Part shown: piece after piece, positions 6,424 to 59,544 of the stretch
Layout: each line of letters begins with the position of its first letter
Numbering within the stretch: position 1 is the stretch's first letter
Assembly: GCA_951406725.2 (NCBI GenBank)
Contig: OX597823.1
Span: 3,596,001-3,660,000 of the forward strand
DNA: 64,000 nt
Reading direction: 5' to 3'
From: Octopus vulgaris
Taxonomy: Eukaryota
The notes under the pieces: model-generated
What the model saw: the letters and a program-made list of their open reading frames with translations, nothing else
Told to the model about the DNA's origin: nothing
Databases searched by the model: none
Position numbers and translations under genes: made by a program

Positions 6424-6469
6424 AACACAATGTTTCGGCTGATATACCTTCCAGCTTTCATCAGGTGTC
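6424..6469 (-). ncRNA. Minimal type-I hammerhead ribozyme motif
   Basis: Minus strand: GACAC CUGAUGA AAGCUG-GAAGGUAUAU-CAGCC GAAAC AUU GUGUU; stem I GACAC/GUGUU; cleavage triplet is AUU here versus GUU in the sister copy. Confidence 0.75.
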
Positions 6470-6547
6470 TTGGGGGGAAATTTCCAACCTGGGTTCTCAT
6501 TCCTAACATATTTTTCAATGTTAATATTATTATTATTGTTCAGGTCA

Positions 6548-6615
6548 CTGCCTGGAATCAAACTCGGAATCTTGGGGTTAGTAGCCTGCACTCTTAACCG
6601 CTGCGCCATATGCCC
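6548..6615 (-). promoter_or_regulatory. tRNA-derived internal Pol III promoter (A and B boxes)
   Basis: Minus strand: TGGCGCAGCGG (A box), anticodon-like loop CTACTAA, GTTTGATTCC (B box, one mismatch). Confidence 0.7.
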
Positions 6616-6682
6616 ATGGGCATATAATAATAACATCAAAAAATACTTTAGGAATGAGAACCCAGGTTCGAAATTTCCCCAA

Positions 6683-6724
6683 GACACCTGATGAAGCCTA
6701 AGAGGGTATATCAGCCGAAACGTT
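6683..6724 (+). ncRNA. Minimal type-I hammerhead motif, 3' arm of stem I replaced by an inversion
   Basis: GACAC CUGAUGA AGCCUAAGAGGGUAUAUCAGCC GAAAC GUU, followed by an inverted copy instead of GUGUU; stem II weakened. Confidence 0.6.
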
Positions 6725-55844: not shown

Positions 55845-55990
55845 ATATTCTTTTCTACTGTAGGCACAAGACACGAAATTTTTGGGCAAGGGACCAGTCT
55901 ATTAGATCGACCCCAGTACGCAACTGGTACTTAATTTATCGACCCCGAAAGGATGAAAGGCAAAGTCGACCTCGGCGGAAATTGAACTCA
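55845..55990 (-). mobile_element. Family A SINE, 5'-truncated
   Basis: Core gaccccgaaaggatgaaaggcaaagtcgacctcggcgg. Confidence 0.8.
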
Positions 55991-57234
55991 ATCACCAACA
56001 TTATCATATGACAATGCTATCCTTGGTAGAGACTGAACAAGGGAAGTAAATGCAAGGAGATTTATCTCCCTTCGAAGAACAGAAAAAAAAAAAGGTGAGG
56101 AGGGGGGTGAGAAAGAAAGACAGAAACAGAGAGGGGGAAGAGAGAGAGAGAGAGAGAGCAGATATATTACCAACAATATTCAAAGTTTGTACAAAATGTG
56201 TATCTTATGTATGTGTGTGTGTGTATATGCATGTATGTATGTATGTCAGTATGCATGCATGCATTTATGAAAGTATGTATTGATGAATATATGTATGTAG
56301 GTAGATAGTATGCAGACAGGTGTATGTATGTATGTACAAATGTATGCATTTATGCATATATGTGTAAGCATGTGTGTATATGTAGTTGTATGTGTATGTA
56401 CACATATATGCTGTTGTGTGTGTGTGTGTGCAAGTGTGTGTGTGTGTGTGTGTGTGTGTGTGTGTGTGTGTGTGTGTGTGTGTGTGTGTATGTATGTCTT
56501 TGGGATTTTGTCATTTTAGAATTCAAAGCTGGTCATGAATAGATTGGCCAGGTTCTTTTGTTTACCTCAAGACAATTCTTTGGGTTTTTTGGGTACCTGG
56601 AATGGTTAATGTATACGCAAATATGTGTGTATTGTGTTTATGTGTTCATGCAGTGGATAAACTTATGGTCCTGGAGTGGGTCACATCAGAAGACAAATAT
56701 ACGTTCTTCGTTATTGGCGTTAGGAAGGGCATCCAGCTGTAGAAACACTGCCAGATAAGACTGGAGCCTGGTGCAGCCTTCTGGCTTCCCAGATCCCCGG
56801 TCAAACCGTCCAACCCATGCTAGCATGGAGAACGGACATTAAACGATGATGATGATGATTGTTTCTGGCCATATGTACATGTGAGTGTGTGCCCTGCATT
56901 CAAACCAGGAACCCCAGAGGGAGAATCCCTGGAATGTTTTACAAAGACTGTCTTCTGTATCGTAACTGATTGTATTTGCCGAATGTGAATCAGTCTGCTG
57001 TGTTTTTCTTGGAGAAACCCCAGATTTCTAGGTTTTTATGCAGATTTGCTGTTACGTAGTTCAGTACCAACTATGATAATGGGAACAAAGGAAAAATTAT
57101 AGCTTGGATATAAATGGATAAGGGTTACAGTTTATCTGTGAGTGTGTGTGTGTGCGTGTGTGTGGTCTCTTCTATTTTTTAATTATTATAAATCTTCCAC
57201 TGAGGAGGGAGTTGGTTTCCAAAGATATAAGGTT

Positions 57235-57800
57235 CCTATGTATGTATGTACGTACATATGTATGTATGATGATGTATATATGCATGATGATGTATGTATG
57301 TATGATGATGTCTGTATGTATGTATGTATGTATGTATGTAGGTAGGTAGGTATGTGTGTATGTATATATTATGTAGGTATGTCTGTCTGTATGTATGTAT
57401 GTATGATGATGTCTGTCTGTCTGTCTGTATGTATGTATGTATGTATTATGTAGGTATGTCTCTATGTATGTATTTATGCATAAATGTATATGAATGTGTG
57501 TGTATATATTTTTGTATGTATGTATGTACGTATTTATGCATATATGTGTATGAATGTGTGTGTGTGTGTGTGTATGTAAGTAGGTATGTCTGTATGTAGG
57601 TAAGTCTGTCTGTCTGTAAGTATGTATTTATACATAAATGTGTACAAATGTGTGTGTGTATGTATTTTTGTATATATGTATGTACTTAGCTATGTGTGTA
57701 TGTATGTATTTATGTATGTGTATGCATGCATGCATATATGTGTATGCATGCACGAATGTATGTCTATTTATGCGCGTGTGTATTTGTGTATGTAAGTAAT
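57235..57800. repeat. Degenerate (TATG)n/(TG)n low-complexity tract
   Basis: Seen directly; similar tracts at 17560-17800 and 56205-56495. Confidence 0.9.
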
Positions 57801-59460
57801 GTTGTGTAATGCCTGTATGTGTGCACGTGTGAATGGATGCTCATATTTGCATATGTATTCATGCATGTATCTATGTGTAAGTTCCCACGGAAATAAACAT
57901 ACACTGCATTAGTGTGTGTATATATCACCACCACCACCAACATTATCATTACCATCACCATCATCACCATCATCCTCATCATCACCACTTGCTGCTCAAT
58001 AACTCAGTTATTGCCAAGAGGCAGGCATTGAAGAGCGAACAGACTTCAAAGGAAACCTCTTCCAAAATGACGTCATGGCACTAAACTTCTTCACCATTAG
58101 GTGACTCCGAATGGCAATCAGGTTGGAACCATTGTAGAATGGATTTAGAATGGATGCTGTGGGTAACACTTAAGGAGAAATCTCTTGATGCGCATAGAGA
58201 AGTATATTGATTTCTTCATGTATGTGCGTGGGTGTATATACATACATATATTATGTATATATATGTATGTGTGTATATATACACATGTATACATCCCCCC
58301 TTCCCCCACACATATAAATATATATTTTTAGTGCAGAAACTGGTCCATGTGAGTCCAAATATTTAAATGTACGTTAGGAGATTTTATTAACCTGATCTGC
58401 CTTTGGTTGATTTCTGTAGCTATCATCAATGTATTTTGGCAATTTAAATAAGAGCTTTGGTTGTTATTTCTAGCAGGTAGACATGCTTAATATGTCCTTT
58501 GATTAATTTTAATCCTTCAGCTATTTAATGCTTATTTTGGGGTCTGCAATCGCCTATATTATTGATTCTGCTATCATTTTTTAGAATAGTCATTCCAGAT
58601 GATAACAAAATTAATGATATCTTAGCAAATTAATTTTTTGAGAATTATTTTTCTCATGAATTGTTTGCCCTTCTATTGATTGTATATAAATATATATTTA
58701 TTTGTGTGCATATATATGTATATAGATATGTGTGTGTGTGTATGTATGTATGTATATATTTATGTATGTATGTAAATATATATATGTATATACATACATA
58801 TATATTTGTGTGCAAGTGTCTGTGTTTGTATGTGTATCTATGTGCAAGCATGGCTGTGCTGTAGGAAGTTTTCTTCCCAACCACATAGTTCCAGGGTCCT
58901 TTTGCTAAACTGCTAAGCTACGGGGGACATAAACACATCAACACTAGTTGTCAAGTGGTGGTGGGAGACAAACAGACACAAACACACACACGCCTACCCC
59001 CACTTCTCTCTACATCTGCACTGAGCATTCTTATTGTTTAATTCACATAAATTCTTCAACACCATGCTAGCACTAACATGCTACCTTTAAGATAGCGTGT
59101 TGGCACATATTGCAAAACCACTTCATATTATCTCAAAAACGAAATCCATATTACCAATTACTTATTACTGTAAAACTGTCCCTCTTAGTTATACTCTCTA
59201 TTTCATTCTTTTACTGTCTTCCTCTCTTTTCATCAAACCGATGTCATCATTTCTGTTCACTGGCTTTGTGGAATATCAGGTGTTTGCACCTGATATTGCT
59301 GCTGTGTGTGCAGACAATGCAACCCAGCTGAGTGAAGAGATCCACTCTCGGTAGTTCACACATGTACTTTATATAAAACATATATTTTATAGAATTTCCA
59401 AAGTGCAGATTCCAAGGTAGGTGAATAAGATATGAGTTACAAAGACGTACAGGTGTCAAT

Positions 59461-59544
59461 TCATTACGGCCGTTTCAAGCAATTCCTTTAATTGATTAAT
59501 GAAAACATTTACATCATTTGAAAGAAACTGTTCTCATCAGATGA
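59461..59544 (-). ncRNA. Type-I hammerhead motif with long stem II (intact core)
   Basis: Minus strand: UCAU CUGAUGA GAACAGUUUCUUU..AAAGGAAUUGCUU GAAAC GGCC GUA AUGA; palindromic stem III ACGGCCGU. Confidence 0.82.

Follow-up and report, generated by a model that had tools for sequence, protein, structure and literature searches.

Minimal type-I hammerhead ribozymes have been described in metazoan Penelope-like elements (PLEs) as small motifs with a short stem I, an extra nucleotide after A9 and a loop III that is palindromic or absent, present in thousands of mostly single, truncated PLE copies and in opposite-strand pairs spaced by 100-700 bp (Cervera & de la Pena 2014, PMC4209133). In that study the PLE hammerheads showed no cleavage as monomers and low cleavage as dimers. 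Insertions of endonuclease-bearing (EN+) PLEs are 5'-truncated, with inverted partners and an optional tail, and Hydra-1_Obim, a hammerhead-bearing member of the Hydra clade from an octopus, is included in the supplement of a survey of the EN+ clades (Craig et al. 2021, PMC8557442). For a lizard Poseidon element, cleavage was reported to need protein, insertion in vitro did not depend on cleavage, and RNA ends were not found at the hammerhead site (Frangieh 2024, PMC11167929); why PLE hammerheads are kept is a question raised by both PMC4209133 and PMC11167929. A 2026 annotation of octopus repeats lists active Penelope families, with ribozymes unmentioned in its main text (PMC13282606). The present analysis concerns a 64-kb stretch of the Octopus vulgaris genome (2.8 Gb in 227 contigs), positions 3596001-3660000 of contig OX597823.1, called the window below, in which an earlier note had pointed out eight hammerhead motifs. 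These motifs are very probably hammerheads of the minimal type-I kind, located in the 3' untranslated ends of six PLE families that encode proteins, and the window copies 5'-truncated insertions.

The eight motifs are real and lie well above chance. Their cores start at 6464(-), 6688(+), 26491(+), 41911(-), 42259(-), 52840(-), 53064(+) and 59540(-); the positions first given for them are exact, each being the lowest base of its motif, and the stem I pairings are as first described, with seven of the eight motifs closed by that stem. A hammerhead descriptor, composed after the motifs had been seen, matched three perfect cores in the window against a mean of 0.017 (maximum 1) in 60 block-wise dinucleotide shuffles, and six sites against a mean of 0.23 (maximum 1) when at most one core mismatch was allowed. 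Rfam cmscan, the kind of search that the earlier note had recommended, recovered none of the eight motifs, as no hammerhead family was among its 103 matches to the window at E<=1. The window holds eight motifs per 64 kb where 1.9 would be expected, which is an unfair test of enrichment because the families were chosen from the window.

Some details of the motifs differ from the first description. The CUGANGA core holds in six of the eight; 26491(+) reads CUGUAGA and 53064(+) reads CCGAUGA, and both are family states rather than decay. The palindromes of stem III are as described, except that the one in 42259(-) is broken (the family state, ACGAUCGU, is kept in 13 of 30 copies). Two further window motifs are damaged: in 6464(-) G16.2 is changed to A, and in 6688(+) a 36-nt fold-back (6704-6739) with ACGT at its centre has taken the place of the 3' strand. 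Fully intact hammerheads are found in three of the eight window copies.

The motifs belong to six families (A-F) and not to about five, D and F being about 80% alike across 67 nt. One query per family was run against the genome; each gave between 1,692 and 3,593 first-look candidates, from which 40 went on to scoring and 30 loci were kept. A 400-kb sample, made up of forty stretches of 10 kb at fixed round positions, held 12 matches to the six families, which extrapolates to about 84,000 copies genome-wide (Poisson range 43,000-147,000). The listed matches of family C are 97-100% identical, arguing that this family is young.

The anatomy of the copies is that described for PLE insertions (PMC8557442). 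Within each family the 3' end is common while the 5' extent scatters from a few bases to more than 1 kb, and the 5' ends of families B-F are staggered. An inverted 5' partner lies within 1.2 kb in 17 of 30 loci of family A, 12 of F, 8 each of D and E, and 6 of C, and in none of the 30 loci of B. The inverted arm of D and F typically lacks about 40 nt that the other arm has, and the tail is found on one arm only. A direct copy within 500 bp was seen in only 3 of the 180 loci; family B has adjacent direct copies in 3 of its 30. The proposed preference for (TA)n sites is borne out by families B-F, in which (TA)n adjoins the 3' end in 26 (B), 25 (E), 20 (C), 20 (D) and 12 (F) of 30 loci, and fails for family A (0 of 30). 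An apparent fixed 5' end of family D at about -1.2 kb was rejected, as the break is an internal repeat and copies run on to the EN.

Outside the window, every family joins an upstream frame for reverse transcriptase (RT) and/or GIY-YIG endonuclease (EN); the association with PLE open reading frames (ORFs) that had been called for was thereby obtained for all six, for E through one locus. The window itself is without a PLE ORF, as had been observed, when searched by tblastn with two PLE proteins. Clades were assigned by the motifs described in PMC8557442, and these motifs suggest a Penelope/Poseidon type for family A, a Neptune type for B and a Hydra type for C, D, E and F. The assignment of E is tentative because its EN link was seen at one locus only. 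The Pfam match to GIY-YIG is weak (E 0.055), and Pfam gave no RT or EN match for the Hydra-type frames, whose assignment rests on motifs.

Family B gives the most complete elements. Its long copies run into GIY-YIG, and at locus L241 a 1098-aa open frame matches RVT_1 (E 6e-8) and has a C-terminal GIY-YIG. The hammerhead stands on both sides of the ORF in L241 and L242, a pseudo-long terminal repeat (pseudo-LTR) arrangement seen for B alone among the six families; family C has a partial tandem at L378. The family B motif follows the EN in 24 of 30 EN loci. The EN is of the type with CX4CxxC plus CCHH, as in the Neptune elements of PMC8557442, and the CX4CxxC linker indicates the Neptune clade. 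Family A continues into an RT with YVDD at L189. Its 569-aa frame at L412 has no linker finger, in which it is like Penelope/Poseidon elements as described in that survey, and it is therefore placed with that type.

In family C, loci L381, L382 and L378 align continuously from the EN through the hammerhead over 2.9-3.1 kb at 92-93% identity, and at L408 a 745-aa open frame lies about 2.2 kb upstream of a 96.5% match. The marks of the Hydra clade given in PMC8557442 are an RWK-like motif, DKT, a CxCx5C linker, the absence of CCHH and a (TA)n target. DKT and CxCx5C occur in family C and in a sister element at L409, which also has RIKWK, and both are assigned to Hydra because these marks match that description and the Hydra-1_Obim protein. 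Families D and F reach ENs with the CxCx5C linker through chains of overlapping copies. The sister element (L409:4467-7052(-)) has about 83% protein identity to family C, many open frames of 820-862 aa and a hammerhead of its own with a ACAAUUGU palindrome, and was probably active recently. The flanks of L357, L380, L382, L026 and L385 also contain RT frames of PLEs with no relation to the six families, and the genome holds many more PLE families.

Column counts over 30 copies per family show a canonical core in A, C, D and F, U at position 6 in B and C at position 4 in E. The states in family E (CCG in 13 of 30, CTG in 9, CCA in 4) argue for a master with C at position 4, and CpG decay of the family's CCGAUGA is the likely origin of the CUGAUGA in window copy E1 at 52840. 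Hammerheads with U4C occur in nature and are less active in vitro (PMC3088659). Variation within families is mostly CpG decay and is uninformative on covariation; covariation of stems I and II and of stem III is seen between families. The stem III palindrome is ACGU in A and B, ACGAUCGU in C and D, ACAGCUGU in E and ACGGCCGU in F, and further families outside the window have ACAAUUGU or ACAUAUGU. In the 400-kb sample, nine of ten descriptor matches are palindromic, and seven of eight among those with a 4-nt loop; ten shuffles of the sample gave no match in any. Palindromes that differ by family and are nevertheless kept palindromic appear to favour folding as dimers. Among the further hammerhead families outside the window (L427, L438, L449, L450 and L456) there are GUC cleavage triplets with the ACAUAUGU palindrome and one more CCGACGA core.

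Folds were also computed. Four window copies (C, E1, E2 and F) keep an intact palindrome with a 4-nt loop, and for these the strand-swapped dimer is predicted to lie 7-9 kcal/mol per strand below the monomer hammerhead fold. Families A and B have no loop, and their stem III cannot close in a monomer. The hammerhead fold was never the computed minimum-energy structure of a monomer. Inverted partners, being on opposite strands, cannot provide the second hammerhead copy in cis. The earlier proposal of minimal type-I PLE hammerheads with a palindromic stem III and dimer-type folding is supported.

PLE biology (PMC11167929) suggests how such insertions may arise. The RT-EN protein would nick AT-rich DNA on either strand and prime cDNA synthesis just 3' of the hammerhead; truncated copies were likely left where the element's own RT stopped early, and two cDNAs joined end to end would give the inverted pairs. 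The master RNA is predicted to be the only place where the hammerhead is active, in the form of a strand-swapped dimer and probably assisted by protein, and the solitary genomic copies would be passengers decaying at CpGs.

Family A is distinguished by a 73-nt tRNA-like segment that begins about 30 nt past the stop codon and is followed by (AAT)n and then the hammerhead. It contains, at tRNA spacing, motifs that we take to be like the A and B boxes, and it may bear a likeness to tRNA-Thr. The hammerhead body follows the segment in 29 of the 30 best segment matches, the remaining one having an insertion in (AAT)n. The segment lies downstream of RT in 19 of 30 RT loci, one of them the query's own locus, and the idea that the tRNA-like head is a stand-alone short interspersed element (SINE) was rejected on finding RT upstream of it. 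ARAGORN, run on the window and at lowered thresholds on 29 loci, did not call the segment a tRNA, nor did Rfam at L183; a degenerate pattern for the parent tRNA, one place too long, returned only five family A copies. A tRNA or RNA polymerase III (Pol III) segment in a PLE 3' untranslated region (UTR) was not found in the literature searched, which did not extend to Repbase, Dfam and some supplements. Pieces of other retroelements lie inside the (AAT)n tract at L208, L497, L033, L037, L038, L051 and L271; the insert at L208 presumably resembles the restriction-type endonuclease end of an R4/Dong-like element.

The number of copies changes sharply at the start of this segment. Exact 20-mers were counted 8,057 times in the family A body and 5,148 times in the segment, but only 865 times at 33-14 nt upstream of it and 943 times about 160 nt further up, in the ORF. 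This is a sixfold step within about 60 nt at the segment start, flat upstream, measured in family A alone, and it means that about five-sixths of the copies that reach the segment begin at its start. Twenty stretches within the initial 7 Mb of contig C1 supplied 21 position-ordered copies, which were read by eye; 18 of them start no more than 8 nt from the first base of the segment and all 21 within 21 nt; two earlier samples agree on this clustering. From the segment start to the 3' end, 34 of 35 family A copies have no T4 run, and the 3' ends of the other families do hold such runs. A 4-bp hairpin (-5.4 kcal/mol) overlaps the segment start, and several inversions pivot there. When 42-46 short copies were compared with 37-45 long ones, no column was diagnostic, and the bodies of the two classes have diverged equally (4.2% and 4.6%, p 0.13); a lower head divergence of the short copies was rejected as an artefact of picking them by an exact 20-mer. 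At L244:2430-3693 (contig C30) one tRNA-like head is followed by six head-to-tail family A units of about 190 nt, each with a hammerhead in a retrozyme-like array, and by a short inverted arm.

Family B departs from the hammerhead consensus at a single position. Exact counts in the genome gave 15,102 matches, 14,944 with U6 and 158 with A6, while any of the four letters can stand at position 7. U6 is also the state of each of the 24 motifs observed behind ENs. The variant described in PMC4209133 is U3-A8 and not U6, and a natural A6C hammerhead cleaves slowly, at less than 0.1 per min (PMC3088659). No A6U hammerhead in a PLE was found in the literature searched, with Repbase, Dfam and some supplements outside its coverage; what came up for A6U was a paper on twister. 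With U6 fixed, position 7 free and the remaining core kept, family B is a natural test of cleavage against some other role.

RNA reads were taken from three raw RNA-seq runs of one study (about 6% of each run) on an organism, here organism B, not shown to be of the same species as the genome. At 85% likeness, 6,484-9,543 reads per run aligned to family A locus L254, with mate directions about equal and 76-81% of reads continuing into unlike sequence. This pattern fits passenger transcription and neither shows nor excludes cleavage. Among the inversion joints in the raw reads, seven of the eight listed have one side at L254:860-881, around the segment start at 877, arguing that the inversion hotspot is common to organism B; 79 further joints lie outside the listed eight. 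A unit-length back-joint, from 794 back to 642, was seen in 87-160 reads per run and is explained by genomic tandems such as L244, which match it. Across L254:560-1400 there are many A>G and T>C read differences in both mate directions; these are also present in contigs, are mostly differences of L254 from its family, and support no claim of editing.

The motifs had at first been read as marks of non-coding, retrozyme-like PLE derivatives mobilised in trans, a reading under which they would have fixed ends of their own and possibly move by way of RNA circles. Animal non-LTR retrozymes (Cervera & de la Pena 2020, PMC7229834; Li et al. 2026, bioRxiv 10.64898/2026.07.22.740005) do share with the present copies a type-I hammerhead, a relation to PLE pseudo-LTRs and, at L244, a tandem arrangement; as described in those reports, they are tandem ORF-less units of 170-400 nt with circular RNAs, whereas the copies here are dispersed, end-staggered and continuous with ORFs. 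The window without a PLE ORF, the L244 array with a matching joint in RNA-seq and the adjacent direct copies of family B would all suit retrozymes. However, the 5' ends are staggered, RT/EN continuity extends to all six families, tandems are rare and none lies in the window, the short and long A copies are alike, and the RNA joint is accounted for by genomic tandems. Retrozyme-like derivatives are therefore very improbable, and the shared 3' ends, mostly staggered 5' ends, inverted partners and RT/GIY-YIG frames argue for truncated autonomous PLEs instead. Mobilisation in trans is not supported for families B-F and may apply, at most, to a sub-population of family A with the tRNA-like segment. 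Several observations do count against the view that all eight motifs are dimer-folding hammerheads of autonomous PLEs: each family is represented by the 30 loci that match its window copy best and not by a random sample; the continuity of D and F elements rests on overlapping copies, not on one continuous element; E is joined to a similar EN only in the inverted arm at L282; stem II is closed without the usual G10.1-C11.1 pair in C, D, E and F; the computed dimer of the loop-less A and B is no better than the open monomer (-11.1 against -12.0, and -4.9 against -5.9); and the alignment to L254 has no pile-up of read starts or ends, although fragmented cDNA libraries are uninformative on cleavage. 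The search for RNA ends recommended in the earlier note thus came out empty at the family A site in the organism B runs, with the same limit on what such libraries can tell. The motifs, above all those of family B and of the Hydra type, might also be hammerhead-shaped but non-cleaving, and retained because they serve the PLE protein as a signal for binding or folding. The near-fixed U6 of family B, the slow A6C variant, the dispensability of cleavage in vitro reported for the lizard Poseidon element and the lack of RNA ends at the family A site are in keeping with this, but the other core positions, the NUH and the palindromic stem III are kept, and freedom at position 7 is the pattern of a catalytic core. 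A purely structural role seems unlikely on balance.

For the short copies of family A, the best guess, and close to an even call, is that the segment is a working internal Pol III promoter, from which transcripts of about 290 nt, with the hammerhead and the 3' tail, would be copied in trans by the element's own RT-EN, as a SINE-like unit within an autonomous PLE. This would fit the sixfold step, the 18 of 21 starts at the first bases of the segment, the near absence of T4 runs and the inversion joints in organism B. Against it stand the negative ARAGORN and Rfam results, the parent tRNA not found with the pattern used, the coincidence of the start with a small hairpin on which several inversions pivot, the lack of a read-start pile-up or of a separate short lineage, and an A-rich sense strand that alone lowers the number of T runs. 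It is also quite possible, though short of even, that the segment is the relic of a dead SINE whose structure, with the adjoining palindrome, stalls the RT or lets the cDNA fold back. Several junctions do pivot on the palindrome at the segment start, window arm 2 of family A has a similar fold-back at the ACGT of stem III, and neither sequence nor age sets the short copies apart from the long ones. But many starts at -7 to +8 have no pivot there (for example L490, L496, L497, L499, L500, L504 and L508), the 4-bp hairpin is weak, and the box motifs and the absence of T runs have been kept. A combined proposal can be put forward only tentatively: a Poseidon-type family A that captured a tRNA-derived Pol III promoter and sheds a hammerhead RNA of about 290 nt, copied about five times more than ORF-reaching copies, together with a Neptune family of about 15,000 hammerheads with a working A6U core.

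Hammerheads in PLEs, opposite-strand pairs, truncated singletons and an octopus Hydra hammerhead are already known, and the main finding, being that of textbook PLE hammerheads, is of little weight alone; the family A segment and the U6 of family B are variant features. The hammerheads here share with those of PMC4209133 the type-I form, a short stem I, the extra nucleotide after A9 and a loop III that is palindromic or missing; as differences they have a family-wide U6 in B and C4 in E, a long loop II in C, D and F (up to about 35-45 nt) and stem II closures other than G-C. Compared with the elements of PMC8557442, the families here have long 3' UTRs (about 2.3 kb in C and more than 1 kb in D and F), the Hydra-1_Obim hammerhead is unlike all six, and the portions of that survey drawn on here describe no tRNA-like segment in a 3' UTR. 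Family A is perhaps closest to the SINE-like hammerhead elements of Schistosoma, which combine a Pol III-type promoter and a hammerhead in a short repeat (PMC6765202); as described there, those are stand-alone, often tandem SINEs, whereas the family A segment lies within an autonomous PLE, upstream of a minimal hammerhead. If the family A segment is indeed a Pol III promoter, it would provide a route for SINEs to arise from and ride on PLE machinery and would account for part of the short-repeat load in such genomes. The differing stem III palindromes within one genome form a clean natural covariation series for the dimer model.

Table 1. PLE copies and hammerhead motifs in the window (positions counted from the first base of the window)
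Feature	Positions	Strand	Remarks
Family A arm 1, Penelope/Poseidon-type PLE 3' end	6370..6617	-	tRNA-like segment, (AAT)n, hammerhead; no terminal tail
Family A tRNA-like segment, A-box-/B-box-like motifs at tRNA spacing	6543..6615	-	5' end of arm 1
Hammerhead A1	6424..6469	-	core 6464, predicted cut after 6429; G16.2 to A (CpG-type decay)
Family A arm 2, inverted partner	6617..6815	+	joined at palindromic start of tRNA-like segment; has 3' tail
Hammerhead A2	6683..6739	+	core 6688; perfect 36-nt fold-back 6704-6739 on stem III ACGT
Family B copy, Neptune-type PLE 3' end	26441..26616	+	hammerhead 26487-26522
Family B hammerhead	26487-26522	+	CUGUAGA, U at position 6; predicted cut after 26518
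Family C copy, young Hydra-type PLE 3' end	41680..41930	-	ends in (TA)n
Family C hammerhead	41846-41914	-	intact core; predicted cut after 41849
Family D copy, Hydra-type PLE 3' end	42060..42365	-	hammerhead 42178-42265
Family D hammerhead	42178-42265	-	stem III palindrome broken; predicted cut after 42184
Family E arm 1, tentatively Hydra-type	52722..52913	-	hammerhead 52797-52844
Hammerhead E1	52797-52844	-	core CUGAUGA; predicted cut after 52801
Family E arm 2, inverted partner, longer 3' end	52915..53340	+	hammerhead 53060-53107
Hammerhead E2	53060-53107	+	core CCGAUGA; predicted cut after 53103
Family F copy, Hydra-type PLE 3' end, related to D	59280..59660	-	hammerhead 59461-59544
Family F hammerhead	59461-59544	-	intact core; predicted cut after 59465

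The family A inverted pair (window 6360-6830) lies within another repeat and has GGGGTCAAT on both flanks, possibly a 9-bp target duplication. Microsatellites and repeats are abundant elsewhere in the window. A 37-bp minisatellite of 10.2 copies with 99% matches occupies 60674-61053, and long inverted repeats at 46289-46765 and 36213-36292 are built of other short repeats and give spurious Rfam microRNA matches. By eye, an open frame at 21270-22154(+) resembles the C-terminal part of a LINE RT, and one at 49195-49737(-) resembles a piece of a Tc1/mariner transposase.

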